This document shows positions 9,634-33,591 of a stretch of 33,591 bases of DNA, piece after piece. The position numbers and the translations under genes were made by a program. This stretch comes from a bacterium (lineage in GTDB: Bacteria > JADJOY01). Numbering within the stretch: the stretch's first letter is position 1; every line of letters starts with the position of its first letter. The DNA lies in contig JAXLQJ010000028.1 of the NCBI GenBank assembly GCA_046331705.1, positions 62,001 through 95,591 of the forward strand, given 5' to 3'. Under the pieces are notes generated by a model. It had not been told where the DNA came from, searched no databases, and was given only the letters and a program-made list of their open reading frames with translations.

Positions 9634-9642
9634 ATGGTACCA
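9634..9642 (-). promoter_or_regulatory. Putative extended -10 promoter (TGgTACCAT) for the leftward operon
   Basis: TGn + TACCAT on the minus strand, about 35 nt upstream of ATG 9599. Confidence 0.35.
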
Positions 9643-10707: not shown

Positions 10708-12530
10708 GAGTGCTGGGGGTCTCCTACGGTTACCACGACTCCTCGGCCTGCCTGGTCGTGGATGGCGAGGTCGTGGCGGCGTCGGCGGAGGAGCGATTCA
10801 CCCGCCAGAAACACGACTCGAACTTCCCCACCTACGCCATCGAGGCCTGCCTGAAGCAAGGCGGCTTGAGCGCGGATCGCCTCGACCAGATCGTCTTCCA
10901 CGAGGACCCGCACGCGAAGTTCTCGCGGGTGCTGTGCAGCGCCATCGCGGGGTTCCCGAACTCGCGGCGAGAGTTCGTCGAGTCCATGAAGTCGTGGCTC
11001 GGGCGCAAGCTGTGGGCCGTGAACACGATCTCGAAGCGCCTCGACGTCGCTCCCGACAAGATCAGTTACCTGGGGCACCACTTCAGCCATGCCGTGCAGG
11101 CGTTCATGGGCTCCGGCTTCTCGTCGGCGGGGATCCTGGTGGTGGATGCGGTCGGCGACTGGTCGTGCTCGGGCCTCTACCGCGGCAGCTGGCAGGACGG
11201 GAAACCGCGGGTCGAGCGACTGATGGAGATCGCCTTTCCGGATTCGCTCGGCCTCGTCTACTCGGCGGTCACCGCGTACCTCGGACTCGCACCCAACGAC
11301 GACGAGTGCAGCACGATGGCGCTCGCGGCCTTCGGCCGTCCGGTCTACCTCGATCGGATGCGCGCGATGGTGCCCGCCACCGAGGACGGCCTCTATCGCG
11401 TCGAGCCCGGCTACTTCCACTTCATCGACTTCTACCGCGGGCCGGTGAGCCAGCGCTTCATCGACGAGCTCGGCCCGCCGCGCAAGAGTCGCGACCCGCT
11501 GCCGTTCGACGCACTCGGCGCGGGAACCCCCGTGAGCGCCGACGCGCAGCGCTTCGCCGACATCGCGGCGAGCGTCCAAGCGCTTCTCGAGGAGCGGGTG
11601 CTGGGGCTCTGCCAGAAGCTCCACACCCTCGAGCCGTCGCCGCGGCTCTGCCTGGCTGGCGGAGTGAGCCTCAACTGCGTGTCCAACTCGCGCATCCTCG
11701 CCGAGTCGCCTTTCGAGACGCTCTACATCCCCCCGGACCCAGGCGACGGCGGCACCTCCGTCGGGACCGCTCTGTACTACGACGCGTGCTCGGGCGGCGG
11801 CGCCCCCGAGCAGCATCGCTACACGCCGTACGTCGGCGAAGCGTGCGACGAGGGCGAGGACCTAGCGATGCTCGCGCACGTGCGACCCGCGCAGTTCGAG
11901 GCGTATCGCAAGCCCGGCGCGAGCCCCACCCCTGCTGGCGACTGGCGCTGGGAGACCTTCTCCACCAGCGAGGCGCTCTGCGACGCGGTGGCGGCACGGC
12001 TCGTGGATCGGCAGATCGTCGGGTGGGTCCAGGGGCGCGCCGAGCTCGGGCCGCGAGCGCTCGGCAACCGCTCGATCCTGATTCGCCCGGACGATCCCGC
12101 CCTCGCGACGCGCTTGAGCCGCAGGGTGAAGGAACGCGCCGCCTACCGGCCTTACGCCCTCTCGGTCGCGGACTTCGATGCTCCCCGCACGCTCGACGTC
12201 CCCGCGGATCAGCTCACGCTGCACCGCTGGATGCAGTTCGCGGCGCGTATCGCGCCCGACGCGCTGGCCCAGGTTCGTGCCGCGGTCCACATCGACGGAA
12301 CGACACGACCGCAGGTCTGTCGTCGCGACGACAACCCGTCGTTCCACGGCCTGCTGCGCGCGTTCGGCGAGCGCTTCGGCCGTGCCGCGCTGCTCAACAC
12401 CTCGTTCAACCCCAGCGGATACCCCATCGTGACGACGCCGGTGGAAGCCCTGTCCATGTTCGCGCGCACCGACATGGACGCGTTGGTGCTCAATCGCACC
12501 GTGATCTGGAAGGAACGACATGTCCACTAG
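10704..12530 (+). CDS. CmcH/NodU (SxtI-like) carbamoyltransferase, paralog 2
   Basis: VRVLGVSYGYHDSSAC, EERFTRQKH, HHFSHA, LAGGVSLNC, GRAELGPRALGNRSIL and LLNTSFN motifs. GTG at 10704 overlaps the upstream TGA. Confidence 0.93.
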   Translation: MRVLGVSYGYHDSSACLVVDGEVVAASAEERFTRQKHDSNFPTYAIEACLKQGGLSADRLDQIVFHEDPHAKFSRVLCSAIAGFPNSRREFVESMKSWLGRKLWAVNTISKRLDVAPDKISYLGHHFSHAVQAFMGSGFSSAGILVVDAVGDWSCSGLYRGSWQDGKPRVERLMEIAFPDSLGLVYSAVTAYLGLAPNDDECSTMALAAFGRPVYLDRMRAMVPATEDGLYRVEPGYFHFIDFYRGPVSQRFIDELGPPRKSRDPLPFDALGAGTPVSADAQRFADIAASVQALLEERVLGLCQKLHTLEPSPRLCLAGGVSLNCVSNSRILAESPFETLYIPPDPGDGGTSVGTALYYDACSGGGAPEQHRYTPYVGEACDEGEDLAMLAHVRPAQFEAYRKPGASPTPAGDWRWETFSTSEALCDAVAARLVDRQIVGWVQGRAELGPRALGNRSILIRPDDPALATRLSRRVKERAAYRPYALSVADFDAPRTLDVPADQLTLHRWMQFAARIAPDALAQVRAAVHIDGTTRPQVCRRDDNPSFHGLLRAFGERFGRAALLNTSFNPSGYPIVTTPVEALSMFARTDMDALVLNRTVIWKERHVH

Positions 12531-19631: not shown

Positions 19632-19652
19632 CCTCGGCGCACGCCGAGCGAA

Positions 19653-21335
19653 TCAGCGACGCAGCCGATCCAGCGCCACGCACGCCGGCACCTGATCGCG
19701 CTCCACGGAGGCCGGCCACGGCGCCGCGCGCGGGGCCACGAGCTCGGGATGCGCCTCGAACCACGCCGCGAGCGTCGCGGCGACCCAGTCGTACCCGAGC
19801 GTGGTGAGGTGGATGTACTCGTAGAAGCGCAGCCGTTCGGAGTCTCGATCCGCCTCTTCCTGCAGCCGCACGATCGGCACCCGCAGCTCCTCGGCGACGC
19901 GGACGAGAATCTGCTGAAACGGCGCGGTCGGGTTGGCGCCGCCGAAGTAGTACCGGTCGATCGGTTCCTCGATCCAGAGCGCCTCCACCTGATGGGCCGC
20001 GGCGATGCCGGCGAAGCAGCGCAGCCCCGCCTCGTAGAGATCGAGGCTCGCCGGTGCGATGCGCAGCTCGACCCACGGCCTGCCGAAGATGTGCGCGAAG
20101 AGCGTCGTGATGCTCGTGTCCATCGCGAGCCGCTGGTCGCTCGCGACGCGGATGTCGAAGTCGAAGAGGTTGTTGTAGACGGACGAGAGCATCACCGCCT
20201 GGGGCCGTGCCGCCTCGATCACGGGAGCGAGGATCGCGTCGATCGACGTGAGCGAAAGCCCCACCTTGGCCGCGTTCGCGACCCGCACCGTGCGCGCGGC
20301 GAACGTCGGCGACTGCGCGAGCCGCCGCTCGAGCCGTGCCGGATAGTCGAACCCCTCGCCCGCCTCGAAGGGATCGCCCGCGGTCGTCGACCCGCCGAAC
20401 GCGACCAGCGTGAGCCGTGGCGCGGCCACCGGCGCGTCGAGGCCGTGGGCCGCAGCGAACCGCGTGGCGTCGAAGCGGCCGTCCACCTGGTAGGGGCCTT
20501 GCTCGTCGCTCGACGGGCACCAGCGCGGCGCGAACAGGATCGTACCCACGACCAGCGCCAGCGCGCTCGCGCTGGTGGCGGCAGCGGCGCGGCGCAGATA
20601 TCGCCAGCGGCGCAAGCGGACGAACCCGAGCAGCGCGAACGACGCGAGCGCCACGGGACGCAGCGGGCTCGCGAGCCACGGCCGCCACGCCTCGCGCTGG
20701 TGCGACCCGGCAGCATCGTGCCAGCGCACGGCGAGGTCCTTCAGGCGGTCGAAGTCGGCGCGCAGGTACGCCATCGGATAGCTCGGATAGAGCGCCAGGT
20801 GGACCGGACCCGCGGGGGGCGCGAACGCGATCGTGCCGGCGTCGCGTCCGTCCTGCTCGATGGCGAGCACCCCATCGTGGAGCCGCAGCCGAAAGCGCGA
20901 TGCGGTGAATCCGGCGCGCACCTCGGGCAGGCGTTCCACGCGCGCCGTGCGGCCGGATTCGATCCAGACGAGCTCGCTGGGAAGCTCCGGGATCGCGCTC
21001 AGCGACAGCACCGCCAGCTCGTCGTCGACCAGCTCGTGGTCCAGCCCGAACACCACGCGCACCATGCGCGTCCGCCGATTGGGCGCGAGATCGAACCGCA
21101 GCTCGTCGAGCACCTGATCGCGAGCGAGGAGCAGGCGCAGCGACGGCGCGAGCCGCGGCCGTAGCTGGACGAGATCGCCGTCGAGCGGGCTCGGCCAGGC
21201 GACGCTGACCGCGAGATCGAGAAGCACCACCGCGCCGCTGGTGATCGCCAGCGCCAGCACCGTCTCGACGATGCGCCTCGCGCGCCCACCCGGCGGGGGC
21301 GCCATCGATCGCTGCATCGTGGATCCGGCCGGCAT
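19653..21335 (-). CDS. Membrane-anchored SGNH/GDSL family protein, paralog 2
   Basis: N-terminal TM plus a beta-rich domain and further TMs. VAFGGSTTAG, VANAAKVG, SSVYNN and YEYIHLT motifs. Start may be 21335 or 21317. Confidence 0.75.
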   Translation of the reverse strand: MPAGSTMQRSMAPPPGGRARRIVETVLALAITSGAVVLLDLAVSVAWPSPLDGDLVQLRPRLAPSLRLLLARDQVLDELRFDLAPNRRTRMVRVVFGLDHELVDDELAVLSLSAIPELPSELVWIESGRTARVERLPEVRAGFTASRFRLRLHDGVLAIEQDGRDAGTIAFAPPAGPVHLALYPSYPMAYLRADFDRLKDLAVRWHDAAGSHQREAWRPWLASPLRPVALASFALLGFVRLRRWRYLRRAAAATSASALALVVGTILFAPRWCPSSDEQGPYQVDGRFDATRFAAAHGLDAPVAAPRLTLVAFGGSTTAGDPFEAGEGFDYPARLERRLAQSPTFAARTVRVANAAKVGLSLTSIDAILAPVIEAARPQAVMLSSVYNNLFDFDIRVASDQRLAMDTSITTLFAHIFGRPWVELRIAPASLDLYEAGLRCFAGIAAAHQVEALWIEEPIDRYYFGGANPTAPFQQILVRVAEELRVPIVRLQEEADRDSERLRFYEYIHLTTLGYDWVAATLAAWFEAHPELVAPRAAPWPASVERDQVPACVALDRLRR

Positions 21336-21374
21336 CGCAGGCGGGACGAGGAATGTCCGGAGCGCCGACGAGGG

Positions 21375-23582
21375 TCAGCCGGGCGCGGCGGGTGGAGGCG
21401 CGGAGTCCGCGGGCGCGGAGTCCGCCGGCGTTGCGACCGTGGCCGGGCGCGACGGCACTTGGATCTCGATGGAGGCCTCGCCGATCGGCTTGATGGGGAA
21501 CGGACGCAGCTCGCCGAGCAGCTCGAGCGAGGCATCGGGCGAGACGCGGCGGTAGTTCCACACCAACGCCAAGTGAGCCTTCCCCTCGACCTCCGCGGGC
21601 ACCGCGACCTGCACCCGATCGTTCACCGTCTGTCCGAAGCGGATACGACGCGCGTCGGCGACGGTGGCCACCGAGAGCAAATCGTGGTGGGTGATCGGCT
21701 GACCGTTGCGATCCAGCCAGCGCGAGCCGAGCCAGGGCGCCCGCGGGTCGCGCCGGCCGGTCTCGTCGACCGCGCCCAGCAGCGGGAACGAGCGGCCGTC
21801 GTCGGTCACGAGCGTGACCGAGAGCCAGAGCTCGGCGAGGTCGTCGGCGCCCGCTGGCAACGCGTGGCCGGCGCGCACGTTCGAGGTGACCAGATCCACG
21901 GTGAGCAGGCGCTCGGCGCTCACCTCGGCGGTGGCGTGGATCACGAACGGCAAGCTCTGGATCCGCGCGTTGGGCTTGAAGAACGGATCGAGGCTGCCGT
22001 GCGAGATCTGCGCGAACTTCTGGTACCAGCCGAGCCCCGGGAACTCGTGCACCAGCCCCGTCGCCGCTCGGTCACGCTCTTCCAGCGGCGCGCCGACGCC
22101 GGTCGATCTCGAGATCAGCGCCAGCGATTGCTGAAGCCCGAGCGAGCTGTGGTGGGGATGGTTGAGCGCCCGGCCATCCTCCTTCTCCCAGTCGAAGAAC
22201 TTCACCCGCGGCATGTGACAGAGCATGCAGCTGTTCTCTTCGCGATCGCCGTACGTCCCCGCCTCCCACGTCGACGAGATGTCCTCCACGAACGTGCCGG
22301 GCGCGGCGGCGCTGCCGGGAATGCCGAGATCGACGCGATGGCAGCTCATGCACAGGAAGGCCCGCGGGCCGAGCGGATTCATGTGCTGGCGATGCGCGCG
22401 GCTGTCGGCCTCGACGGAGCGCTGGAAGACCCGCCGCATGACCTCGGGGTCGGTGTCGGGCGAGAACTGCGACGGCAGCATGCCGAGCCGGAAGTTGGCG
22501 TTCTTCGGGTGCTCGTCGACGGCGACGACGCGATGGCAGGAGATGCAGGTCACGCCCTCGGCCTCGTCGTCGGTCGGCGGCGCGGTGCCGGTCTCGAGCG
22601 CCGCCTGACGACGCAGCTCGCGCGCCGGGTCGTGGCAGGAATGACAGAAGTCGGCGGCCTTCTCGCCGTGGCGCTCGATGGTGACTCGCACCGCCGCGCG
22701 GTAGAGGTCGTTGAGCGCCGCGTGTCGGTGCATCGAGACCTGCCATTGGCGGTACTCGTCGGTGTGGCAGCGGCCGCAATAGTGCGCCGACTCGATCGGC
22801 GACCAGCGCACCGGGACGAAATCCTGCGGGTGGCTGTCGCCCCATTCCTGGCGGTTCCAGTTGAGGAACACGAAGGCGAGCGCGGTCATCACCAGCACCG
22901 GCACGACGTAGCGTGGACGCAGCCGCCGCAGCACGCGCCACATGCCCGGCACCGCGGCCCGGATCCGGCGCAGCCCGAGGTGGATGACGATCGCGATCGG
23001 CAGCAGCGTGCCGGCCCATTGGTGCAGCGCGTAGAAGTTGAGCGCGTAGATCCCCTGGTGCCGGATCAACGGCCGATTCAGGATCATCACCTCGAGGTGC
23101 GTGCCGAGACCGGTGGTGAGCGCGATCTGCATCAGCACGAACACCAAGAGCGCGATCCCCGCCGAGCCCGGATCCATGCCCCTGAGCCAGGGGCGCAGCA
23201 CCCGGATCATCCGCCAGAAGATCCAGATCGTGAGCGGACCCAGCAGGATGAGCGTGTTGATGCCGAGGAATCGCGACACGAAGAACATGAACCAGAAGCC
23301 GAACAGGTAGGCGAACACCCGGCGCGGCCCGATGCCATCGAGGTGCCGCTTCAGGAAGACCGCCAGGACCGGCACCAGGAACCGCGCCAGCCAGACGTGG
23401 ATCTCGAACGGCGTCAGTCGCGGCACACCGAGCGCCACCGACGACATCCACAACCCGGTCACCGCCTGGCCGGTCAGCAAGGCGACGGTGATCCACAGCA
23501 AGGGATCCCGCCACACCACGGCGGGACGCGCGCCGGGTCGCAGCGGGGGTGCAGCCGAGGTCGCGGGCTCGGAAGGTTTCAT
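21375..23582 (-). CDS. Membrane-anchored multiheme cytochrome c (5 CxxCH), paralog 2
   Basis: TM region with four His residues, then CGRCH, CHSCH, CISCH, CMSCH and CMLCHMP. C-terminal GHALPAGADDLAELW. Confidence 0.9.
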   Translation of the reverse strand: MKPSEPATSAAPPLRPGARPAVVWRDPLLWITVALLTGQAVTGLWMSSVALGVPRLTPFEIHVWLARFLVPVLAVFLKRHLDGIGPRRVFAYLFGFWFMFFVSRFLGINTLILLGPLTIWIFWRMIRVLRPWLRGMDPGSAGIALLVFVLMQIALTTGLGTHLEVMILNRPLIRHQGIYALNFYALHQWAGTLLPIAIVIHLGLRRIRAAVPGMWRVLRRLRPRYVVPVLVMTALAFVFLNWNRQEWGDSHPQDFVPVRWSPIESAHYCGRCHTDEYRQWQVSMHRHAALNDLYRAAVRVTIERHGEKAADFCHSCHDPARELRRQAALETGTAPPTDDEAEGVTCISCHRVVAVDEHPKNANFRLGMLPSQFSPDTDPEVMRRVFQRSVEADSRAHRQHMNPLGPRAFLCMSCHRVDLGIPGSAAAPGTFVEDISSTWEAGTYGDREENSCMLCHMPRVKFFDWEKEDGRALNHPHHSSLGLQQSLALISRSTGVGAPLEERDRAATGLVHEFPGLGWYQKFAQISHGSLDPFFKPNARIQSLPFVIHATAEVSAERLLTVDLVTSNVRAGHALPAGADDLAELWLSVTLVTDDGRSFPLLGAVDETGRRDPRAPWLGSRWLDRNGQPITHHDLLSVATVADARRIRFGQTVNDRVQVAVPAEVEGKAHLALVWNYRRVSPDASLELLGELRPFPIKPIGEASIEIQVPSRPATVATPADSAPADSAPPPAAPG

Positions 23583-23814
23583 GGCGCGAGCGCAGAACGT
23601 GCGATCCGCACACGGCTCGCCGGCGACACCACGCGCGCCGCACGCGCGCGGCGGCGGAGCCCCACCAGGGCGTCGCGCGCGGCGGACGCGGGATCGGCGA
23701 CGGAATCACGTGCCGGAGGCACGGATCACTGCATTCATCTCGAGGTCCGTTCGCGACCGGGGGCAGGGCGAACGTACTTGCAGCGCGCGGGGGACCGCAA
23801 GCCTGCTCGGACGA

Positions 23815-25269
23815 TCAGCCAGCGAGCCGGGCCTGACCGAGCGCCGCGGGCGCATCGAGGTGCGACGGGCGCGCGGGCGCGCTCGCTCCCCAACCCATCG
23901 TGTCGCGATGCACCGAGTTGTAGAGGCAAAACGGCACGTAGCCCTTGGAGGTGAAGTAGACCATGTGGCAATCGGTGGCCGAATCCACGTCCAGCGCGTC
24001 CTGCGAATAGAACTTCTCGACGTTCACGAACAGCACGTTCGAGGGCCAGCGCCCTTCGTCGTAACGCAGCAGCCGCGGCACGGCGCGCGCCAGGTTCCAG
24101 GCCAGTCGCGGATGGGTGAGCACGAAGAGCGGCCGGAGGAAACGGTTCACCGGGTGGAGACGGTCGCCCTTGCCCACCAGCACGAAGGGCGTGATGCACG
24201 CGCGCTGGCGGAACACCGCCTTGCCGGTCCAGCGATAGAGCAGCGCCCACAACCGCTTGGTGGCCAGGATGTCCTCGCCGGTCACGTCGCCGTCCGTGGT
24301 CTCGGCGAAGCGCGCGAACATGTCCGCGAGGTGCATCTCCCAATGACGCGTGCCGCCCACGGCGACCGCCTTCGGGTTCGGCGGCGCCCAGCGACCCACC
24401 GGCGTCATCGGGTAGAAGGACACGCGCTTCACGGCGGGATGGGCGACGGCGAAGCGCAGGATCGGCCCGACCTCGCGGTCGTTGATTCCCTTGGCGACCA
24501 TCACGGCCAGGTGCACGCCCACTCCCTCTTCGTGGAGCGCGTCCAGGATGCGGCGCTTCTTCGCGAGCAGCGGCTTGCCGCGCAAGGTCTTGTAGATGTC
24601 GTCGTGAAAGCCGTCGAACTGGAGGATCACCCAGCGCATGCCGGCGTCCACCAGCGTGCGCAGGTAGTCGCGGTCGAGGAAGCGCTCGCCGTGGGTGGTG
24701 ACGCGCGCGACGTAACCGCGGCCGTGAAGGGCGCGGAGAATCTCGGGCAGATCCTTGCGCCGCGTCGGCTCGCCGCCGATCAGCACCAGGTTCGGCTTCA
24801 CGTGCCCGGGCGGTGTCTGCGGCAATCCGGCGAGGATCTCGTCGAGGCTCGGCTCGCGGGCGCCGTTGTCGTCGGCCTGCGCGAAGCACGTGGGACACGG
24901 GTAGCCGCACGCCTCGGTCAGATCGATGGCGATGTTGGTCGTGAGCTCGAGGGGGCCCGAGCCGGCGGCGTCGCGGGGACGCGCGTAGCGTCCCAGTCGT
25001 GAGCCCGCCTCGCGAATGCGCCGGAAGAGATCGGCGTCGCGCGCGTAGAGCTCCTCGACGACGCCGTGGGTAGGGCAGTTGCGGCGCAAGTGGAGATCGC
25101 CGTCGCGCTCGACGAGCTCGGCGGATCGCAGCGCGCCGCCGCAGCGCGGGCACGGGCTCGTCACCGGACGCGGCGCGTGCTCGGCTGCGCTGCGGGCGCC
25201 GAACCGGCGACGCAGCGACGACAACGACGCGGTGAAGGCGGAACGAGGGGTCGCGGTCGCGACGTTCAT
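23815..25269 (-). CDS. Radical SAM protein, tetraether-synthase (Tes/GDGT-MAS/MJ0619)-like, paralog 1
   Basis: SPCPRC..ELVERDG..RNCPTHG rubredoxin-like N-terminus, IDLTEACGYPCPTCFA, GGEPT, LQFDG and C-terminal EKF..DCHMVY..PFCLYN. Start ATG 25269 or GTG 25164. Confidence 0.85.
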   Translation of the reverse strand: MNVATATPRSAFTASLSSLRRRFGARSAAEHAPRPVTSPCPRCGGALRSAELVERDGDLHLRRNCPTHGVVEELYARDADLFRRIREAGSRLGRYARPRDAAGSGPLELTTNIAIDLTEACGYPCPTCFAQADDNGAREPSLDEILAGLPQTPPGHVKPNLVLIGGEPTRRKDLPEILRALHGRGYVARVTTHGERFLDRDYLRTLVDAGMRWVILQFDGFHDDIYKTLRGKPLLAKKRRILDALHEEGVGVHLAVMVAKGINDREVGPILRFAVAHPAVKRVSFYPMTPVGRWAPPNPKAVAVGGTRHWEMHLADMFARFAETTDGDVTGEDILATKRLWALLYRWTGKAVFRQRACITPFVLVGKGDRLHPVNRFLRPLFVLTHPRLAWNLARAVPRLLRYDEGRWPSNVLFVNVEKFYSQDALDVDSATDCHMVYFTSKGYVPFCLYNSVHRDTMGWGASAPARPSHLDAPAALGQARLAG

Positions 25270-25320
25270 GGAAGCTCGAGTCTGCGGGGAGGCGGCCGGA
25301 GGGTAGCGCCGGACGTTCCG

Positions 25321-25355
25321 CGCTCGCAACACGCTGGCAACATACGCTGGCAACA
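25321..25355. repeat. Short tandem repeat ACGCTGGCAACA x2 (13-bp period) plus a degenerate upstream copy
   Basis: Identical 12-mers at 25331-25342 and 25344-25355, and cgctcgcaaca at 25321-25331. Intergenic, upstream of Tes-like paralog 1. Confidence 0.6.
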
Positions 25356-25409
25356 CACCCGGCCGACACACGGCTGGCGGCACGCCGTGGGCGGCTCGCG
25401 CGCGCCAGG

Positions 25410-27641
25410 TCAATCGAACGTGTACGCCAGCGGACGCGCTCGCCAGGGGCCGTGGCGCGCCGTCGCCTCCCACGAGAGGTCCCAAGAGGGCTCCCACGCG
25501 ATCAGATCGGTGGTGACCACCCGCGCATCGGCGCCGACGCGAACCACGACTCGTTCCCGGCCACCGACGTCCACGACGCGAACGCCGCGGCCGGCGCTCG
25601 CCTCCAGCACCGCGCTCGGCAGGTTCGCGATCGCGAGCCACACGAGCGGGCCGTGGCGCAACGCCACCAGCGCCGACTCCGGCCCGTGCCAGGACGCGCC
25701 GAGCGACGTCACGATGGCATCGTCGAGGTCGGTCAGGTCGACGTCCACGGCCCCGGCATCCGCACCGGCGTCCACGGCGCTCGCCGCGCGCAGGAAATCG
25801 TCGCGGCCGTGAAGCGGGCGCGACAGGTCGAGCACCAACGCCACCGCACGCGAATCGCGGGCCGCGAGCGGTAGCTGGTCGGGATCGCCGCCGTGCGCGC
25901 GCGCGAGCGCCGAGAGCCCTGGCGGCACCAGCTCGCCGCCGACGCCGAGCAGCCGCAACATGCGGTCGGAAGGCGAGACCGTGAAGTCGCGGAACCGCGG
26001 CTGACGGCCCGCGGCGGCGAGGCTCGCGATCGACGCACCCGGTCCGCCGAACGACGCCCCACCGAGATCGGGAAGCCAGGCGAGCGCCGTGGTGACGGCG
26101 CGATCGACGGCGACGTGCTCGACGAGCTCCGGCGCCGATCGCGGCGTCCCCTTGCCGTCCCACTCGGCGTAGAGCGAAGGCAAGCGAGGATCCACGGGGA
26201 AGCGCGCGCGCTTCGCGAGCGTGACCGCGACTGCCGAGAGCGCCACCGCCACCGCGAGCACGACGAGCGCACGACGGCGCGAGCGCGGATCCACGAGCCG
26301 GCGCGCTCCGGCCACGGCGAGCACGTAGAGCGGCGGCAGCAACGGCAAGATCGTGCCGCTCTTGGCGCGATCGACCCAGTTGGCCTGCGCGAGCAGCGGC
26401 GGCAGCGCGAGGACCGCCGGCATGCACTGCAGCAGCACGCGACGGGCGTCGTTGCGCGCCGCGCAGACGAACCCCACGGCGGCGAGCCCGATGGCCAGGA
26501 GCCCGTGCCGCGCGAGCAGCTCGGCGGGGAACCGCAGCAGCGCCGGCAGCGCGCGATGCGGATCGCGATAGAGCTCCGGCGCGAAGGGCCAGTTGAGCAG
26601 CCCGTGCCAGTCGAAGCACGCCGGCCCGATGCAATGGCGCACGCTCGGGTACTTCTGGAACGACTCGAACGACGCCGGCTGGTCTCCGAACAGCATCGCG
26701 CCGTGCGCGAGCACGCTCGGCAGCAGCGCCCACCCGAGCCCCACGGCGTAACGTCGCGCCACCGCGCGCCACTCGGCGCGCGGCCACAGCACCAGCGGCA
26801 ACGCAAGCGCCGCGGGGAGGAGGTGATGAGAGACCGCCACGGCGAGCCCGGCGAGCGCGCCCACCCACGCGGGCCGATCCCGCCCGATCCCGATGGCGAG
26901 CGCCAGCACCGTGACGACGAGCGCGTAGCTCGTGAGGTTGGGGTTCGGATGCCGGATGGCGAGCGCGAACGGGCTGCCCGCCACGCACGCGGCGAGCGCC
27001 AGCGCCCAGGCCGGTCGCGCCCACAGCGCTCTGCCGAGCCCATATCCCGCCAAGCTCGCGAGCGCGCCCTCGACCCCCATCGCCCACCTCGGGCCGAACG
27101 CCTCGAGGGTCGCGACGTGGGTCGCGAGCAGCGCGACCGCGCCTTCGTTCTGGCCGAAGCGCGCCATGAGCGTGAGGTTCTTCCCCACCATCGAAGCCGG
27201 CAGGTCGGGCGCGTAGCCGCTCAGGAAGTCGGTGAGCGCGATCAGCGCCGAGGCGGGCATGCAGTGGTGCTGGGTGAACGTCAGCGAATCGAATCGCGCC
27301 ATCCACGTCGCCCCGGCCGTCACGGCGAGGGTCAGCGCCGCGAGATCCGCCCGCGTCCACGCGCGCGCGCGCTGCACGGGCGTGCCGCGGGTGCGCCACC
27401 ACGTGAGCCCGCAGGTCGCGAGCGCGGCGACCACCAGCACCGTGCGATCGAGGTGCAGCGGCAGCGCGAGCCCGACGAGCGCGCTCAGCGTCCAGCCACC
27501 CCAGCCGACGCAGAGCAAGCCCAGCGCGATCGCGAACGCGAGGCGTGGCGCCGCTTCCGCATCCGCCGCCAATCGCCGCGCCAGGAACATCCCGGGCGCG
27601 ACGATCACCGCCGCCCACGAGAGGACGAAGACGACGATCAC
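25410..27641 (-). CDS. Uncharacterised polytopic membrane protein (LNWPF family, possibly GT-C fold), paralog 2
   Basis: 743 aa with many TM helices. GGGGGA RBS-like sequence before GTG 27641. Motifs shared with 17478-19631. Confidence 0.75.
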   Translation of the reverse strand: MIVVFVLSWAAVIVAPGMFLARRLAADAEAAPRLAFAIALGLLCVGWGGWTLSALVGLALPLHLDRTVLVVAALATCGLTWWRTRGTPVQRARAWTRADLAALTLAVTAGATWMARFDSLTFTQHHCMPASALIALTDFLSGYAPDLPASMVGKNLTLMARFGQNEGAVALLATHVATLEAFGPRWAMGVEGALASLAGYGLGRALWARPAWALALAACVAGSPFALAIRHPNPNLTSYALVVTVLALAIGIGRDRPAWVGALAGLAVAVSHHLLPAALALPLVLWPRAEWRAVARRYAVGLGWALLPSVLAHGAMLFGDQPASFESFQKYPSVRHCIGPACFDWHGLLNWPFAPELYRDPHRALPALLRFPAELLARHGLLAIGLAAVGFVCAARNDARRVLLQCMPAVLALPPLLAQANWVDRAKSGTILPLLPPLYVLAVAGARRLVDPRSRRRALVVLAVAVALSAVAVTLAKRARFPVDPRLPSLYAEWDGKGTPRSAPELVEHVAVDRAVTTALAWLPDLGGASFGGPGASIASLAAAGRQPRFRDFTVSPSDRMLRLLGVGGELVPPGLSALARAHGGDPDQLPLAARDSRAVALVLDLSRPLHGRDDFLRAASAVDAGADAGAVDVDLTDLDDAIVTSLGASWHGPESALVALRHGPLVWLAIANLPSAVLEASAGRGVRVVDVGGRERVVVRVGADARVVTTDLIAWEPSWDLSWEATARHGPWRARPLAYTFD

Positions 27642-27704
27642 GTCGATCCCCCGCGCGCGCGGCGGCGGAAGCGCTGGCGCTGGGCGAACCGCCGGCGCGA
27701 CGGC

Positions 27705-29066
27705 TCAGCGCCGCGGCGGCGAGGGCGGCGGCAGCGAGTGGAAGGACTGGGGGCGACCACGCACGAGGGCGTTATACACGCAGTCCGTCACGTAGCCTGC
27801 CGGCGTGAGGTAGTACTTGGTGCAGTTGCGCGCCTCGGCGTAGTCCATTCGCTCCGCGTCGAGGAACTTCTCGACGAAGATCCCGACCACCCCGCGCGCG
27901 GCGCCGCGGCCCGCTCGCCAGCCCAGGATCGAGCCGGCGGCGCGCGCGGCGGCGGCGCCCTTGCGCCAATGACGCAGCGCCGCGCCCGGGCTCGTGAGCC
28001 GATTGAGCGCCACGTAGTCGCCCGCGCGACCGACGGCGAAGGTACCGAGCAGGCAGGTTCGAGCGCTGGCGGCGAAGGAACGCTTGCGCAGCACGAATCC
28101 CGCCCAGCGTCCGACGGTCTGCCACTTCCGCGCCGCGTCCACGAAGTCGTCCTTGGTGACGCGACCGCCGGTCTGCTCGCCCACACGATCGAGGAAACGC
28201 GCCAGATCGAAGTCGCGGCTCGTGCCCGCGCCGAGCGCGCTGCGCCCCAGGTTGGCCACCGGCAAGAACGAGACCTGCGCGACGTGCTCGCTCTCGAGCC
28301 CGAGCTGGATCATGCGCCCGACGTGATCGTCGTTGAGCCCCTCGACCACCGTCGCCACCAGCACCACCTGGATGCCGGCCTCGCCCAGCAGCCGGATCAG
28401 CTCGAGCTTGCGCGCGGTGAGCCCCTCGTGCCCGCGCAGGACCGCGTGCACGCGGTCGTCGAGACCGTCGAATTGGAGCACCACCGAGCGCAGCCCGGCG
28501 GCCCGGAATCGGTCCACCATGGCGCGATCGACGACGTGACCGTTGGTGTTGAGCTTGACCGCGAAGCCCGCGCCGCGCAGCCATTCGAGCAGCTCGGGCA
28601 GATCCTTGCGCAGCGTGGGCTCGCCGCCGATGACCGAGATCTCCGGCGGGTTCGGCAGGCGTGCCAGCCGTTCACACTCCGCGCGAATGAGCTCGAGCGG
28701 AAGCCCACCCTGCACGTCGGGTGACGACTGGGAGAAGCACGCGGGACACGTGTAGTTGCAGCGCTCGGTGACGTCGATCTTGATCTCGGTCGCCGGCGGG
28801 GGCGCGCCGCCGAGCGGCGTGAAGACCGAGCCGCTGCGTGTGGCTTGGCCGTGATCGATCACCCGCCGCAACCGCTCGTGGAAGGCCGCGTCGCGCTTGT
28901 GGAGCACGCGCTCCTCGCCGCAGCGTGGGCAGCGGCGCACGAGGTACCAATCCCCGTCCTGCTCGACCAGCTCCGCGGGGCAGAGCGTGCCGCAGCGCGG
29001 GCAGGGGCTCTCGGTGGCGCGCCGCGCTCCGCTCACCTCGTGGCGCGGTTCGCGCGCCGCCGTCAC
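27705..29066 (-). CDS. Radical SAM protein, tetraether-synthase (Tes/GDGT-MAS)-like, paralog 2
   Basis: TESPCPRC..ELVEQDG..RRCPRCG, IDVTERCNYTCPACFS, GGEPT, LQFDG and EKF..NCTKYY..DCVYN. GTG 29066 overlaps the upstream TGA. Confidence 0.85.
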   Translation of the reverse strand: MTAAREPRHEVSGARRATESPCPRCGTLCPAELVEQDGDWYLVRRCPRCGEERVLHKRDAAFHERLRRVIDHGQATRSGSVFTPLGGAPPPATEIKIDVTERCNYTCPACFSQSSPDVQGGLPLELIRAECERLARLPNPPEISVIGGEPTLRKDLPELLEWLRGAGFAVKLNTNGHVVDRAMVDRFRAAGLRSVVLQFDGLDDRVHAVLRGHEGLTARKLELIRLLGEAGIQVVLVATVVEGLNDDHVGRMIQLGLESEHVAQVSFLPVANLGRSALGAGTSRDFDLARFLDRVGEQTGGRVTKDDFVDAARKWQTVGRWAGFVLRKRSFAASARTCLLGTFAVGRAGDYVALNRLTSPGAALRHWRKGAAAARAAGSILGWRAGRGAARGVVGIFVEKFLDAERMDYAEARNCTKYYLTPAGYVTDCVYNALVRGRPQSFHSLPPPSPPRR

Positions 29067-30763
29067 GGCGCCTCGGACGCGGCCACGTGCGCGAACGGGG
29101 CCGCCCCCAGCATCGCGGGCTCGGTCGCCGGCGCATCCTCGCCGCGCTGCTCCACGTGCGGACGCGGCGCGACGCCGGTGCGAAGTCGCGCCGACTCGGG
29201 TTGCCGAAACGGCAGCCGCGCCGTGCCCCGCCGGAAGCCCGGCCAGACGCGACGCACCAGATAGGTCGCGTAACGCTCGGGCGTGCGGATCGCTTCGAAC
29301 CGCTCCATCCGCTCGTGCCCGCGCTTGCCGCGCGCGCGCCACCACTCGCGGATCCGACCCGCGTAGCCCACGACCGCCCACACCGCCGTGTAGCCCGGAT
29401 GCGGCAGGAACCGATAGCGACGCTTCGCCGCGAACCAGCGAATGATCCCCGCGGGCAGGTACGGCGTCAGCACGAACAGCATGCCGAGCTTGCGAATCGC
29501 CGCCTCGGTCCGATAGCCGCCGAGCGCGACCCGCTGCACGGATTCTCCATCCAGGATCCGCTCCACCGCGGCGTGGTCGAGCAAGCCCTGCTCGCGCGCG
29601 ATGTCGAGCACCGCGGTCCCTGGATAGTAGGCGCAGTAGAACGCGTTCACCTCCGCGGGCGGATCGTCGACCAGGTCGAGCAGCGAGCGCACCAGACCGG
29701 CCTCGGTCTCGAGCGGCAGATTGAGGATGACGTCCAGCCCCAGGGGCACGTCGTACTGGCGTGCCAGCCGCAGCGAGCGCCGTACCTCTTCGTCGCTCTC
29801 GCCGCGGTAGGCGACGCGGCTGCGCACCTGTGGATCGAACGACTGCACTCCCACCTCGAGCGAGCGGCAGCCGGCGTCGGCCAAGGCCTTCACCACGTGC
29901 TCGTGGATCGTGTCGGGGCGAGCCAGGCAGAAGAACGGCAGGCCGATCGTGTCGCGGTAGCTCGCGCAGAATTCCTCCACCCACGGCCAGCTCTCGGTGA
30001 AGGTCTCGTCCTCGAAGCGCACCGAACGCGGCGACAAGTGCTCCTTCGCCTGGCTCAGCTCGTCGATGACGTTGGCGACCGACCGCTGCCGCACGTACTG
30101 GCTGTTGGGCAGCCGGTAGAGCCGCTTGCCGTGCCAGTGATGGCAGAACGAGCACGAGTACGAGCAGCCGCGCTGCGCCATGATCGGATAGCCGAACTGG
30201 AAGCCGCGCGCCTCGGCGAGGTAGAGGTTCTTGTTCGGAAACGGCAAGGTGTCGAGATCGGCGATCAGCGGGCGCACCGGATTGACCTGCACCTCGCCCG
30301 TGCCCGGTTTCCGGAACGCGAGGTTCTGGATGGCGGCGGTGGGGGCGCCGCTCGCGAGCGCGTCGACGAGCTCCACGATGGCGTCCTCGCCCTCGCCCCG
30401 GATCACGAAGTCGATCTCGGGGTTGCGCAGCACGCGCTCGGGAACCGCCGTGGGATGGACGCCGCCCAGGACGATGGGCACGTCCCGGCGGCGCTTCACC
30501 TTGCGCGCCAGCCGCAGCGCCCACGGAAATGCCGGGCTCAGCACGCCGAGGCCGACCAGATCGGGCTCGAGCGCCGCGATCCGATCGGCGATCCGATCGG
30601 AGGAATCGAGCAGGCGAGCCAGCGTCGGGAACGAGACGAACCCGTCGTTGAAGAGCACCGGGTCGAAGGCGAGGCTGACGCGATGGCCCGCCCGCTCGAG
30701 CACCGCCGCGAGGTACTCGATCCCCAGGTTCTCGAAAGCGGCGAACGCGAGCACGACGTGCAT
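29063..30763 (-). CDS. Cobalamin-binding radical SAM protein (class B)
   Basis: ENLGIEYLAA, IVLGGVHPT, RGEGE, QRGCSYSCSFC and GVQS motifs. ATG 30763 is preceded by GAGAGGA; GTG 30787 is an alternative. Confidence 0.92.
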   Translation of the reverse strand: MHVVLAFAAFENLGIEYLAAVLERAGHRVSLAFDPVLFNDGFVSFPTLARLLDSSDRIADRIAALEPDLVGLGVLSPAFPWALRLARKVKRRRDVPIVLGGVHPTAVPERVLRNPEIDFVIRGEGEDAIVELVDALASGAPTAAIQNLAFRKPGTGEVQVNPVRPLIADLDTLPFPNKNLYLAEARGFQFGYPIMAQRGCSYSCSFCHHWHGKRLYRLPNSQYVRQRSVANVIDELSQAKEHLSPRSVRFEDETFTESWPWVEEFCASYRDTIGLPFFCLARPDTIHEHVVKALADAGCRSLEVGVQSFDPQVRSRVAYRGESDEEVRRSLRLARQYDVPLGLDVILNLPLETEAGLVRSLLDLVDDPPAEVNAFYCAYYPGTAVLDIAREQGLLDHAAVERILDGESVQRVALGGYRTEAAIRKLGMLFVLTPYLPAGIIRWFAAKRRYRFLPHPGYTAVWAVVGYAGRIREWWRARGKRGHERMERFEAIRTPERYATYLVRRVWPGFRRGTARLPFRQPESARLRTGVAPRPHVEQRGEDAPATEPAMLGAAPFAHVAASEAP

Positions 30764-30783
30764 GGGATTCCTCTCGACGTGCG

Positions 30784-32211
30784 TCACTCGCGGAAGTACG
30801 TGCGGTACTGGCGCAGCAGATCCGGGGCCTCGCGCACCAGCTCGGGAAAGCTCTTACCCGAGCGCTCGCCGTAGCCCAAGGCCTGCCCCAGAAAGAAGAG
30901 CGCGAGGTAGAGCGGCCCGAGATCGTGCCGGGCGAGGCGCTCGATCGTCGGGATGAACCACGGGAAGCGCACGCCCACGGCGAAGAGCTTCTGGACGCGC
31001 AGCACGGCGTCGATCTCGTCGCCGCCGACGTAGCGGCCGTGAAACGAGCGGAACTCGCCCTCGGTGGCCGCGAGCTCCACCAGGCCGCGCTCGAGGCCCT
31101 GCTCGGTGAGCTCGAGCCCGCGGTAGGGCTGGAACACGAAGCCGAGCACCGATTGCGGACGGATGCGGGCGTTGAGCCGCACCGTGTCGAGCGCGTCGGC
31201 GAGCGTCTCGCCGGGAGCACCGAAGATGTTGGTGGTGTGGAACTCGATGCCGGCCGCGTGCAGCGCCTGGGCGCAGCGGACGATCTGATCGTCGGACACG
31301 TACTTCTTGAGGAGGCGGCGACGCAGCTCGGCGTTGCCGCTCTCGACCCCGAACGAGACCTGGTAGCAGCCCGCGCTGGCCAGGTGCCGCGCCACCTCGG
31401 GCGTGAGGGTCTGCGCCACCACGTTGCAGCGAAACGGCAGCGCGACCCGCCGCGCGTAGACCTCGAGGAACTCGTCGAGCCAGCGCGCCGACCAGTTGAA
31501 GACGTCGTCGTAGAAGTGGACCCGCTCGAGACCGTAGCGGGCGCGGACCTCGAGGATCTCGTCGCACACCGCGTCCGGCGAACGGAAACGAAGGTAGTTC
31601 TCGGGGTCGGGATGCAGCGATTTGTAGCCTTCGTTGAAGCAGAAAGTGCACTTGTACGGGCACCCGCGCCCTGCGATGAAGGGCTTGATCGAGTTCTCGC
31701 GCAAGAACGGATGAGCGTCGTAGTAGAGCCGCCGATCCGGCCACGGCAGTGCGTCCAGATCCGCGAGAAACGGCCCGAGCGCGTTGTGCCGCACGGCGCC
31801 GCCGGCCTCGCGCCAGGACAGGTTCGGTGTGCTCCCGGGGTCCTCGCGCCGCTCCAACGCGTCGCAGAGCGCAGGCAGCGCCTCCTCGCCCTCGCCGCGC
31901 ACGAGCCAGTCGTAGGCCTCGTCGCGGATGACGTCCGGACAGAACGTGGGATGAGGACCGCCGAGGACGATCGGCACCCGCGGCAGCGCTTCGCGCAACG
32001 CGGCGACGACGCGCCGGGTCCAAGGCAACCGGATCGTCGGCACGCTGAAGCCGACGAGATCGGGGCGAGCCGCACGCACCTGCTCGACGACCCGCGCCAC
32101 CTCGAAGCCGACGATCGCCGTGCTGCGATGCCCGCGCGGCGCGAGCGCCGCAGCGAGGCTCATCAGCCCGATCTGCTCGAAGTAGAGATCCTGGACGAAG
32201 ACGACGTGCAT
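30784..32211 (-). CDS. Cobalamin-binding radical SAM protein (class B)
   Basis: EQIGLMSLAA, IVLGGPHPT, RGEGE, GRGCPYKCTFCFN, FYDDVF, FGVESG and GAPGET motifs. Start ATG 32211. Confidence 0.93.
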   Translation of the reverse strand: MHVVFVQDLYFEQIGLMSLAAALAPRGHRSTAIVGFEVARVVEQVRAARPDLVGFSVPTIRLPWTRRVVAALREALPRVPIVLGGPHPTFCPDVIRDEAYDWLVRGEGEEALPALCDALERREDPGSTPNLSWREAGGAVRHNALGPFLADLDALPWPDRRLYYDAHPFLRENSIKPFIAGRGCPYKCTFCFNEGYKSLHPDPENYLRFRSPDAVCDEILEVRARYGLERVHFYDDVFNWSARWLDEFLEVYARRVALPFRCNVVAQTLTPEVARHLASAGCYQVSFGVESGNAELRRRLLKKYVSDDQIVRCAQALHAAGIEFHTTNIFGAPGETLADALDTVRLNARIRPQSVLGFVFQPYRGLELTEQGLERGLVELAATEGEFRSFHGRYVGGDEIDAVLRVQKLFAVGVRFPWFIPTIERLARHDLGPLYLALFFLGQALGYGERSGKSFPELVREAPDLLRQYRTYFRE

Positions 32212-32253
32212 GCGAAGGGCGCGAAGGGAACTCGATCTTAGCGCAACGGCGGT

Positions 32254-32261
32254 CTTATACT
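32254..32261. promoter_or_regulatory. Overlapping divergent -10-like hexamers (TATACT on +, TATAAG on -)
   Basis: AT-rich island in the divergent gap 32212-32454. Confidence 0.33.
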
Positions 32262-32454
32262 TCGTCGCCTCCCGATCGCCGCGCCCGAGCCCGTTCTTGG
32301 TGCCCGCCACTTCGAGTCGCACGCCTCGCACGCGCGCCGACCGCTGCATCGACGCCGCTTCGACCCGGCCGCGTGCCGCGTGGCTCGCCGCGCGCGCGCC
32401 GCGCCGCCCCGCCTCGCCACGCCCGTTCTCGCGAAGTGCATCCGGAGCCCCGCC

Positions 32455-33591
32455 ATGCGCGTCCTGCTGGTGAACCCGACGGTCCTCGACAACCCGCTGG
32501 TCGAGCCCAACCTCTCGCTCGGTTACCTGGCGACGGCCTTGCGCGCCGCCGGACACGAGCCCGTGATCCTCGACGAGCTCAAGAAGCCCGCGCATCGGCC
32601 GCGCGATCTACGCACGTATCTCGAGCAGCAGCGCTTCGACGCCGCAGGCGTCCACGTCTACGCGATGAACGCGCTCAAGGCGCGCGCGATCCTGCGGACC
32701 TTCCGCGAGGTCAACCCGCGCGGCGTCACGCTGCTCGGAGGCCCGTACGTGGCCGCCACTCCCGAGGCCGCGATGAACGTGGTGCCCGAGGCCGACTACG
32801 GCTTCCACGCGGAGGGAGAGCGCGGCGTGCCGCGGCTCCTGGATCGCCTCGCGGCAGGCGCCTTGGGCGACCCCACCACCGTCGAGAACCTGGTGTGGCG
32901 CGACGGCGACCACGTGTGCTTCGGGCCCAAGGTCTTCGAACCCAACCTGGACGCGCTGGGCGTGCCCGCCTGGGACCTCATCGCGCCGGCGCACTACAGC
33001 ATGAGCCCGCTCGGCATCTTCACCCAGCGATTGCCGCTGGCGACGATGATCACGAGTCGCGGCTGCCCGTACCCCTGTAATTTCTGCACCATCAAGTCGA
33101 TCACGGGCAATCGCACCCGCCGCCGCAGCGTGGCGCACGTGCTCGACGAGATCCGGTTGCTCAAGCGCGAGCACGGGGTGCGCGAGATCCACTTCGTCGA
33201 CGACCACATCCTCGGCAACCCGGACGGCAACCAGAAGGGACCGACCTGGCTGACCGAGCTGTGCGAGGCCATGGTGCGCGAGCGGATCGACGTCACCTGG
33301 ACGGTGCCGCAAGGAGTGCGCCTCGACGGCCTCGACGAGCCGCTGGTGCGGCTCATGGAGCGCGCCGGCTGCCACGCCATCGGCGTGGGCATCGAGAGCG
33401 GCAGCCAGCGGGTCCTCGACGCCATGGAGAAGAAGCTCGATCTCGCGACCATCCGCGAGAAGGTCGCGCTGGTTCGGCGCGCGACCAAGATCAAGGTCGA
33501 GGGCCTCGTGATGCTCGGCTACCCCGGCGAGACGCCCGAGGAGATCGACGCGACCATCCGCATGGTTCAGGCGCTGCCGCTCAGCTTCTGC
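32455..33591 (+). CDS. Cobalamin-binding radical SAM protein (class B), 3' truncated
   Basis: Not in the ORF track because it runs off the window end. My translation gives MRVLLVNP..PNLSLGYLATAL, LLGGPY, GEGE, TSRGCPYPCNFC, FVDD, GIESG and GYPGET. Confidence 0.92.
   Translation, partial: MRVLLVNPTVLDNPLVEPNLSLGYLATALRAAGHEPVILDELKKPAHRPRDLRTYLEQQRFDAAGVHVYAMNALKARAILRTFREVNPRGVTLLGGPYVAATPEAAMNVVPEADYGFHAEGERGVPRLLDRLAAGALGDPTTVENLVWRDGDHVCFGPKVFEPNLDALGVPAWDLIAPAHYSMSPLGIFTQRLPLATMITSRGCPYPCNFCTIKSITGNRTRRRSVAHVLDEIRLLKREHGVREIHFVDDHILGNPDGNQKGPTWLTELCEAMVRERIDVTWTVPQGVRLDGLDEPLVRLMERAGCHAIGVGIESGSQRVLDAMEKKLDLATIREKVALVRRATKIKVEGLVMLGYPGETPEEIDATIRMVQALPLSFC

Follow-up and report, generated by a model that had tools for sequence, protein, structure and literature searches.

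Two radical S-adenosylmethionine (SAM) enzymes, RS1 and RS2, are encoded in one same-strand gene run within a 33,591-nucleotide stretch of bacterial DNA, hereafter the window. Our analyses show that they are anciently diverged paralogs within a distinct, uncharacterised bacterial clade of the Tes/GDGT-MAS superfamily, whose archaeal prototype is MJ0619. They are not equivalogs of Tes, because they score under the Tes cut-off, lack the site for the N-terminal cluster [Fe4S4]N, carry Glu in place of Met439 and fall in a separate clade; nor are they equivalogs of TrsS. The family, fold, ligand pattern, clade and gene associations described below are observations. With moderate confidence, we read each enzyme as a lipid-pocket radical enzyme whose substrate would be a membrane-anchored lipid or a lipid-linked sugar, and which would belong to a module with B12-binding radical SAM and glycosyltransferase-type genes. 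The host genome (G000) comprises 8.17 Mb in 118 contigs and is 95.7% complete; the window has a G+C content of 72%.

RS1 and RS2 belong to the Tes/GDGT-MAS superfamily

Both open reading frames (ORFs) exist, and every motif that the first-pass annotation of the window had named is present in their translations. Each protein has a ribbon metal site, CPRC...CPTHG in RS1 (Cys3His) and CPRC...CPRCG in RS2 (Cys4), and a radical SAM motif (IDLTEACGYPCPTCF in RS1 and IDVTERCNYTCPACF in RS2) with the CX3CX2C spacing shared with Tes/GDGT-MAS; the cysteines of this motif in RS2 are C103, C107 and C110. LQFDG occurs in RS1 and RS2 alike, and the C-terminal C-x3-Y...C-x-YN segment is made up of C434..Y438 and C448-L-Y-N in RS1 and of C415..Y419 and C429-V-Y-N in RS2. 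Pfam recognised Zn_ribbon_HMPTM (PF23545; 35.5 bits for RS1 and 42.4 bits for RS2, cut-off 27) and Radical_SAM (61 and 83 bits, cut-off 29.5), and a Pfam scan found no SPASM or twitch domain in either protein. The two proteins are 35% identical over 443 columns (E 2e-70). Such agreement goes well beyond chance.

When PDB sequences were searched with phmmer, GDGT-MAS (7TOL) was the only strong match to RS1 (E 1.5e-41) and to RS2 (E 1.7e-40), and MoaA came next (E 2e-8 and 1e-11, respectively). An AlphaFold2 (AF2) model of RS2, built from a 38-row alignment, had a pLDDT of 89.7 and a pTM of 0.90, and Foldseek superposed it over its whole length on the GDGT-MAS structure 7TOM (E 2e-32, TMq 0.75, TMt 0.69, 495 columns); the next match was MoaA, restricted to the core (1e-10, TM 0.37). 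The fold evidence is that of the RS2 model, and RS1 is placed by its sequence match to 7TOL. The layout proposed in the first-pass annotation, that of Tes/MJ0619, is thus borne out by Pfam, by the match to 7TOL and by the whole-length fold match of RS2. The converse case, in which the proteins would have grouped with the MoaA/SPASM families, is contradicted by the scores, Pfam and fold: NCBIfam MoaA and SPASM-type models gave 20-77 bits (MoaA alone 38-65 bits against cut-offs of 231-325), RS1 and RS2 share the radical SAM core with these enzymes and nothing beyond it, and MoaA is the outgroup of the tree described below.

The best NCBIfam model for both proteins was TrsS (NF045646; 163.5 bits for RS1 and 183.1 bits for RS2), short of its cut-off of 490, and the Tes model (NF045702) gave 158.3 and 148.2 bits, respectively, short of 450. 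TrsS proteins are of similar length (about 440 aa) and have a ribbon and core layout like that of RS1 and RS2; however, the match to the TrsS model is limited to the N-terminal two thirds and reaches about a third of the cut-off. PMC13188914, the one paper found to name TrsS, lists it in a table without describing its function. Compared to the 506 residues of GDGT-MAS, proteins of the RS1/RS2 type are shorter by about 40-70 residues. They also differ from archaeal Tes in being bacterial and in lying among B12-binding radical SAM and sugar genes.

Metal-site ligands differ from those of Tes and TrsS

MJ0619 has been described as the lipid enzyme GDGT-MAS, with four metal sites: a ribbon iron (C9X2C12X20C33X2H36), [Fe4S4]N bound by C73, C77, C80 and a His, the radical SAM cluster, and [Fe4S4]C, of which Met439 is a labile ligand (PMC9433317). 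The same report gives Met439 and Tyr459 as fully conserved among 1000 archaeal homologs, and describes catalysis in which a substrate carbon becomes bonded to a sulfur of one of the clusters, the C-terminal cluster serving to hold the carbon-sulfur intermediate (PMC9433317).

We compared these ligands in a 22-protein alignment with reference proteins checked against NCBIfam, namely five archaeal Tes (685-751 bits), three bacterial TrsS (591-636 bits) and a fourth bacterial protein of TrsS type (484 bits, just under the TrsS cut-off). The linker motif CPxxC..GLCxxH and the Met were present in 5/5 Tes and 4/4 TrsS-type rows, and the TrsS rows lack the Tyr. In contrast, RS1, RS2, two of their paralogs in the host genome (at loci C21 and C26) and the representatives P0004, P0009, P0017 and P0041 have no linker Cys and carry Glu at the Met439 position (consensus EKF; E399 in RS2 and E418 in RS1). 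All eight of these rows keep three C-terminal Cys and the Tyr. The Cys in question (C338, C415 and C429 in RS2; C358, C434 and C448 in RS1) align with conserved Cys of the five verified Tes, and Tyr419 of RS2 aligns with the conserved Tes Tyr. From this alignment, we infer that the three C-terminal Cys bind one auxiliary [4Fe-4S] cluster. The ribbon of RS1 has the Cys3His ligands of GDGT-MAS, whereas that of RS2 is Cys4.

The pattern extends to the 38 aligned clade members, in all of which the three radical SAM Cys and the first three ribbon Cys are invariant. The fourth ribbon ligand is His in 30, Cys in 7 and Ala in 1; position 399 of RS2 is Glu in 34; Cys occupies the positions of C338, C415 and C429 in 30, 36 and 30 members, respectively, with Asp at position 429 in 8; and the position of Tyr419 holds Tyr in 29 and Phe in 6. 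A second flavour, that of the Asp-bearing members, was seen in the three of them that were inspected (the copy at locus C46 of the host genome, P0011 and P0022), which have the linker CX4CX5CX2H and are without two of the three C-terminal Cys. Judged by these ligand patterns, the clade appears to come in two flavours with a single auxiliary cluster site apiece; RS1 and RS2 are of the C-terminal-cluster kind.

The part that links the core to the C-terminal cluster segment is reduced as well: residues 378-413 of RS1 align beside residues 379-454 of GDGT-MAS, a shortening of about 40 residues that may trim the second lipid pocket.

RS1 and RS2 fall in a separate clade of old paralogs

A four-member profile searched against 1.84 billion representatives (50% identity) recovered 838 proteins at E <= 1e-30. 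Among the 150 rows listed, the best 45 score at least 251 bits, and most of these are about 420-440 aa long and match nearly the whole profile; below the best 45, most listed matches are restricted to the ribbon and core. The clade is thereby put at about 45 representatives at 50% identity. A word-index homolog search recovered 7 proteins at E <= 1e-10 among 8000 candidates scored. We built a tree of 102 rows that held RS1, RS2, the three other copies of the host genome, 35 clade representatives, four fusions trimmed to the matched part, 39 lower-scoring representatives, 18 of 28 locus proteins (the other 10 were left off as cut or core-only) and a MoaA of the host genome as outgroup. It was computed with the IQ-TREE quick search without bootstraps, and its starred branches are to be taken with caution.

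A branch with 100% support in the Shimodaira-Hasegawa-like approximate likelihood ratio test (SH-aLRT) divided 45 clade rows, together with the MoaA outgroup, from 56 rows that included all verified Tes and TrsS, TrsS clustering with Tes on the far side of this starred branch from RS1 and RS2. The profile search and phylogeny that had been suggested as a check thus place RS1 and RS2 in the Tes superfamily, yet in a clade separate from verified Tes. Within this clade, RS1 lies in a starred subclade of 22 rows (sister P0009, 48% identity) and RS2 in a starred subclade of 5 rows (sister P0004, 58% identity); they are therefore old paralogs.

The GTDB phylum of the host comprises only six species genomes, all of which have at least two clade genes. 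In the other five, the best identity to RS2 is at most 37%, so none of them has an RS2 ortholog. The phylum is a poorly sampled lineage of two genera in one family, with genomes of 5.5-8.4 Mb. Clade genes are also found in a metagenome-assembled genome (MAG) titled Thermodesulfobacteriota (G061), which has four. A literature search at listing level for COG1964, HMPTM, PF23545 and Tes-like proteins returned no paper about this clade.

B12-binding radical SAM and glycosyltransferase genes accompany the clade

The host genome carries five clade genes at four loci: the window and the loci C21, C26 and C46, which were annotated by a simple GC3-based gene call, all-against-all BLAST and Pfam. A B12-binding radical SAM gene lies within 2.5 kb at all four (gaps of 0, 1, 2063 and 2410 bp). 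By comparison, 4.3% of 20000 random 1.4-kb intervals have such a gene within 2.5 kb, and the product of the four chances is about 3e-6. C21 holds a PMT_2 glycosyltransferase of the GT-C type (44.5 bits, cut-off 26.1), the Tes-like gene, a B12-binding radical SAM gene after a 1-bp gap, an unknown gene and an alpha/beta hydrolase-like gene. C26 holds a B12-binding radical SAM gene, a family 2 glycosyltransferase (GT2), an NDP-sugar epimerase, the Tes-like gene, a membrane protein whose soluble C-terminal half is uncharacterised, a multihaem membrane protein and a GT4-like gene. C46 holds the Tes-like gene of the second flavour, two SPASM radical SAM genes, a B12-binding radical SAM gene and another SPASM radical SAM gene; translations suggest that a suf-like run follows among its further genes.

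The association is also found outside the host genome and within single polypeptides. The C21-type trio is kept in L012, a MAG of the same genus, and in L013, which also has a multihaem membrane protein and two further B12-binding radical SAM genes. In G061, locus L009 combines three B12-binding radical SAM genes with a Tes-like gene and a relative of the window's 743-aa membrane protein, L125 has the gene set of C46, L124 and L127 have weaker Tes-like genes amid many B12-binding radical SAM genes, and the 5.6-kb contig of L126 carries two Tes-like genes without any B12 gene. Furthermore, natural fusions exist inside the clade: P0017 joins a B12-binding radical SAM enzyme to a Tes-like enzyme, and P0041 and P0042 join a GT2 to a Tes-like enzyme. 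A methyltransferase fusion, P0069, lies on the TrsS side of the tree. The best GT2 models for the fused GT2 domains were ArnC (49-56 bits) and PpgS (40-49 bits). ArnC and PpgS are polyprenyl-phosphate sugar synthases. A literature search at listing level that combined tetraethers of the branched glycerol dialkyl glycerol type (brGDGTs) with cobalamin or radical SAM returned no paper on a module of Tes-like and B12 enzymes.

Six B12-binding radical SAM queries recovered 76 separate B12-binding radical SAM-like loci in the host genome by tblastn, often in runs of 3-5 genes (e.g. C6:211607-244913, C7:98963-173233 and C4:121121-190202), and one such query gave 9-13 matches at E <= 1e-40 in each of five related genomes. 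For class B radical SAM enzymes, this is an expansion of unusual size.

In the window, the 743-aa membrane protein encoded between RS1 and RS2 is a lead for a further glycosyltransferase: protein-atlas language-model features assign it to an ArnT/PMT_2-like (GT-C) group with a score of 0.97, and 12 of its 30 matches are PMT_2. Its relative at L009 (772 aa, 28.5% identity over 487 aa, 3.6e-22) adjoins the Tes-like gene there. It is 28% identical over 408 aa (E 1e-7) to the window's 717-aa membrane protein, and it has one ortholog in the GTDB phylum of the host (in genome G002, 57% identity).

Three side observations concern these loci. The second-flavour Tes-like gene stands with two or three SPASM genes both at C46:16257-22581 and at L125 (G061:C415), a second conserved module that is distinct from the window's. 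In three genomes (G001, G002 and G004), six matches to the 574-aa B12-binding radical SAM enzyme of the window show a single in-frame TGA close to the query's C terminus, which could be a selenocysteine codon, a frameshift or the stop of a shorter gene. A selenocysteine reading of TGA (or TAG) codons inside the C46 and C26 matches was rejected; these codons either terminate the genes themselves or fall upstream of the start.

Organisation of the window

Table 1. Features of the window discussed in the text, with the evidence for each.
Feature	Position	Strand	Evidence
RS1, Tes/GDGT-MAS-fold radical SAM (484 aa, ATG start)	23815-25269	-	ORF, Pfam, NCBIfam, PDB match
RS2, Tes/GDGT-MAS-fold radical SAM (453 aa, GTG start)	27705-29066	-	ORF, Pfam, NCBIfam, PDB match, AF2 model
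743-aa polytopic membrane protein, between RS1 and RS2	25410-27641	-	ORF
B12-binding radical SAM enzyme (574 aa)	29063-30787	-	Pfam B12-binding 80.6 bits, Radical_SAM 69.8 bits
Second B12-binding radical SAM enzyme (about 478 aa; start uncertain, 32220 to 32310)	30784-32220	-	Pfam, NCBIfam
Third B12-binding radical SAM gene, divergent, truncated by window end	32380-33591	+	Pfam, NCBIfam
735-aa protein, N-terminal membrane domain and multihaem cytochrome c-like part, directly downstream of RS1	21375-23582	-	Pfam
560-aa protein, final gene of the same-strand run	19653-21335	-	ORF
717-aa polytopic membrane protein, weak paralog of the 743-aa protein	17478-19631	+	BLAST
PMT_2-like GT-C, below cut-off	3053-5281	+	Pfam
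GT2	5321-6061	-	Pfam
NDP-sugar epimerase/dehydratase	6049-7035	-	Pfam
Three tandem GCT(C/G)GCAACA copies, in the 140-nt gap upstream of RS1	25322-25355	.	Motif scan

RS1 and RS2 are part of a head-to-tail run of seven minus-strand genes (approximately 32220 to 19653; Table 1). The first three, two B12-binding radical SAM genes and RS2, are joined by 4-nt stop/start overlaps: the stop of the second B12-binding enzyme overlaps the start of the 574-aa enzyme, and the stop of the latter shares the four letters GTGA with the start of RS2. The gaps further along the run are 63, 140, 232 and 39 nt. The first-pass annotation, whose coordinates (23815-29066) take in RS1, the 743-aa protein and RS2, was right to see two Tes-like enzymes in one run; it left the B12-binding radical SAM and glycosyltransferase-type partners out of account.

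The best NCBIfam models for the 574-aa enzyme were ApyD (131.7 bits, cut-off 750) and HpnJ (115.9 bits, cut-off 577.6), and it is no NCBIfam equivalog, because these scores are far under the cut-offs. The best model for the truncated divergent gene was rSAM_ladder_B12 (128 bits, cut-off 360). Complex prediction for the 574-aa enzyme (residues 1-505) with RS2 (residues 12-445) scored 0.00 in both runs and gives no answer either way.

Pfam matches of the 735-aa protein are an MtrC/MtrF domain (31.8 bits) and Cytochrome_C554 (24.7 bits). It has paralogs near other Tes-like loci (W_01, C26_13 and C28up_10) and a relative in L013. More broadly, proteins of 630-810 aa with an N-terminal polytopic membrane domain and a multihaem part (several CXXCH) recur beside Tes-like and B12-binding radical SAM loci; members lie at 920-2959(-) and 21375-23582(-) in the window, at C26:87786-89672 and C28:54745-57174, and at L013:2989-5085. 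We mention only in passing the idea that this family might carry electrons to the radical SAM enzymes. The 560-aa protein at the end of the run has no Pfam or NCBIfam match. Three paralogs of about 560 aa (C26:86082-87782, C28:53003-54658 and C21:24221-25963; 35-51% identity) combine a membrane domain at the N terminus with a C-terminal half that is soluble, and one of them directly follows a Tes-like gene; the C26 copy, the only one scanned, has no Pfam family.

The other window genes recognised by Pfam encode an SDR (short-chain dehydrogenase/reductase), a GDSL hydrolase, a polysaccharide-deacetylase-like protein, two carbamoyltransferases and a second multihaem membrane protein. With the sugar genes of Table 1, this makes the neighbourhood of RS1 and RS2 a sugar or envelope locus, not a glycerolipid locus. 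The two carbamoyltransferases of this locus, at 7905-9794(-) and 10704-12530(+), are of NodU/CmcH type and 35% identical to each other, and the pair suggests a carbamoylated sugar product.

The motif GCT(C/G)GCAACA has three matches in the window, all of them in the repeat of Table 1 (expected 0.15; 0 of 100 shuffles reach 3). Contigs of two other sequencing runs (X1 and X2) have an extra 13-nt copy inserted behind 25328, and copy number therefore differs between strains. Judging by their position, the repeats could be an operator or an internal promoter element. A promoter and terminator scan of 19000-33591 returned 0 and 0 sites, which is uninformative at 72% G+C.

In an independent assembly of run X1, one 5652-nt contig bridges 22981-28619 with 16 letters differing, and contigs from two DNA runs confirm the gene order. 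Near-identical DNA was found at at least half of the sampled words in 18 runs from 11 studies, with the label activated sludge, sludge, wastewater or anaerobic digester, or just metagenome. Contigs of 150-295 nt from RNA libraries (X19 and X20) match RS1, RS2 and their neighbours, mostly with 0-2 differences and in a few cases with up to 10; these are a weak hint of transcription, as DNA may be present in such libraries, and no meaning attaches to stretches that the contigs leave uncovered.

A proposed reaction on a membrane-anchored substrate

The Tes fold and the retention of the C-terminal site speak for radical chemistry of the Tes type with a greasy substrate, and the fusions and neighbours argue for a pathway with B12 radical SAM steps and lipid-linked sugar enzymes. 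In the scheme that we propose, each enzyme would hold a rubredoxin-like metal ribbon, a SAM-cleaving [4Fe-4S] cluster and one C-terminal auxiliary [4Fe-4S] cluster on three Cys; the surface N-terminal cluster of Tes would have been lost, and a conserved Glu would stand in place of the labile Met ligand. By analogy with GDGT-MAS, which also guides the bond made and the order of steps, a greasy membrane-anchored substrate would occupy a pocket with the SAM site on one side and the C-terminal cluster on the other, the 5'-deoxyadenosyl radical would take a hydrogen atom off an unactivated sp3 carbon, the substrate radical would be parked on the auxiliary cluster, and a new C-C bond, or possibly a C-S bond, would then be made. 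Because the clade forms a conserved module with B12-binding radical SAM, GT2 and GT-C-like genes, the substrate would most likely be a lipid-linked sugar (e.g. a polyprenyl-phosphate sugar) or an envelope glycolipid precursor at the cytoplasmic face; a pair of phospholipid tails joined into a tetraether would be a less likely one. The C-C or C-S coupling on a lipid-like substrate proposed in the first-pass annotation is thus reasonable, since the Tes fold, the three C-terminal Cys and the Tyr are kept, even though the enzymes are not Tes.

Several points weigh against this proposal. The identity of the substrate is shown by no analysis. The GT-C label of the 743-aa protein comes from language-model features only: the protein has no Pfam family, hhalign against the PMT_2 protein of locus C21 gave a probability of 9.5%, its AF2 model from a 6-row alignment was poor (pLDDT 52.6, pTM 0.42), and a fold search with that model returned 0 matches at E <= 0.001. 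The ArnC and PpgS scores of the fused GT2 domains are far under the NCBIfam cut-offs. With 76 B12-binding radical SAM-like genes in the host genome, some proximity to Tes-like genes is expected anyway, and at C46 and L125 a clade member stands with SPASM radical SAM genes and no glycosyltransferase. GDGT-MAS does its chemistry at the tail end, deep in the pocket, and a sugar-directed reaction would need a changed binding mode. Finally, the review PMC13459092 counts the archaeal Grs ring synthases (GrsA and GrsB) as members of the B12-domain radical SAM group, so the pairing of Tes-like and B12 enzymes also fits tail chemistry.

Alternative readings

The last point leads to the main rival, in which RS1 and RS2 are true membrane-spanning-lipid synthases that couple lipids tail to tail into brGDGT or diabolic-acid-type lipids, with the B12-binding enzymes as chain methylases or Grs-like ring formers and the glycosyltransferases building head groups. 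Its appeal lies in the whole-length Tes fold with conserved C-terminal cluster Cys and Tyr, in the grouping of GrsA and GrsB with B12-domain radical SAM enzymes, which gives a parallel in the way archaeal Tes is paired with B12-type Grs (PMC13459092), and in the proposal of bacterial Tes homologs for brGDGT synthesis (PMC8941075, PMC11868695); the L012 MAG, of the same genus as the host, is moreover titled Deltaproteobacteria and placed in Myxococcota by the tree labels. However, RS1 and RS2 lie outside the Tes clade at about a third of the Tes cut-off, the stretch before the C-terminal cluster segment is some 40 residues shorter, and the ORFs of the window that were scanned include no genes for fatty acids, glycerolipids or ether lipids. 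The bacterial enzyme with demonstrated coupling is Mss of Thermotoga, which joins two lipid tails; it is likened to RS1 and RS2 here by description only, and it has its own heading, apart from Tes, in the review PMC13459092. As far as the available part of PMC11868695 goes, no bacterial Tes homolog has demonstrated activity. We consider this rival unlikely, while ranking it above the others.

An obligate heterodimer of RS1 and RS2, as the first-pass annotation suggested, would fit the presence of two paralogs in one same-strand run with a single gene between them. The suggestion finds no support elsewhere: the other three loci of the host genome have one copy each, five other genomes of the phylum have clade members of which none is more than 37% identical to RS2, the two proteins sit in separate starred subclades (22 and 5 rows), and GDGT-MAS was purified as a monomer (PMC9433317). 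We regard obligate pairing as improbable.

Still harder to sustain is the reading of RS1 and RS2 as maturases for peptides made by the ribosome and modified after translation (RiPPs) that work alongside B12 radical SAM C-methyltransferases. ApyD, a RiPP enzyme, is the best NCBIfam model for the two adjacent B12 enzymes (132 and 144 bits), and the C46 paralog and L125 stand beside SPASM-domain radical SAM genes, but the ApyD scores are far under the cut-off of 750, the four intergenic gaps of the operon contain no start-to-stop small ORF in six-frame translation, and neither a peptidase nor an exporter family turned up in those ORFs of the window that were scanned. In addition, the fold is that of a lipid enzyme, and natural fusions are to GT2. 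A soluble cofactor precursor as substrate, as for pterin methylases, is suggested only by the Pfam name HMPTM, taken from an older annotation of MJ0619, and is very improbable given the description of MJ0619 as the lipid enzyme GDGT-MAS (PMC9433317) and neighbours that are membrane proteins and sugar enzymes, not cofactor genes.

Implications for the family

A Tes-like gene alone is insufficient to infer tetraether production, because this clade has lost one cluster, changed a ligand and joined sugar or envelope loci with B12 enzymes. This matters because brGDGTs are widely used climate proxies. As far as the available parts of PMC8941075 and PMC11868695 go, bacterial Tes relatives are in print only as untested brGDGT candidates. 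In published screens, homologs were taken by BLASTP against MA_1486 with a limit of 1e-50 (PMC8941075), and these screens probably did not count the present clade, since its match to GDGT-MAS is at about 1e-41.

The fusions of Tes-like enzymes with B12-binding radical SAM enzymes and with GT2 are concrete expression constructs, and lipid work has accessible material to draw on, given the 18 runs that contain near-identical DNA. More speculatively, and with doubt well ahead of confidence, the clade and its dedicated B12-binding radical SAM partners may make novel cross-linked, cyclised or methylated membrane-anchored lipids or lipid-linked sugars by means of a Tes-type enzyme with two iron-sulfur clusters in place of three, and could possibly account for unusual bacterial lipids, branched or membrane-spanning, in wastewater and other habitats low in oxygen. 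For the Tes/GDGT-MAS superfamily itself, the clade is a natural experiment on the roles of the N-terminal cluster and of Met439.

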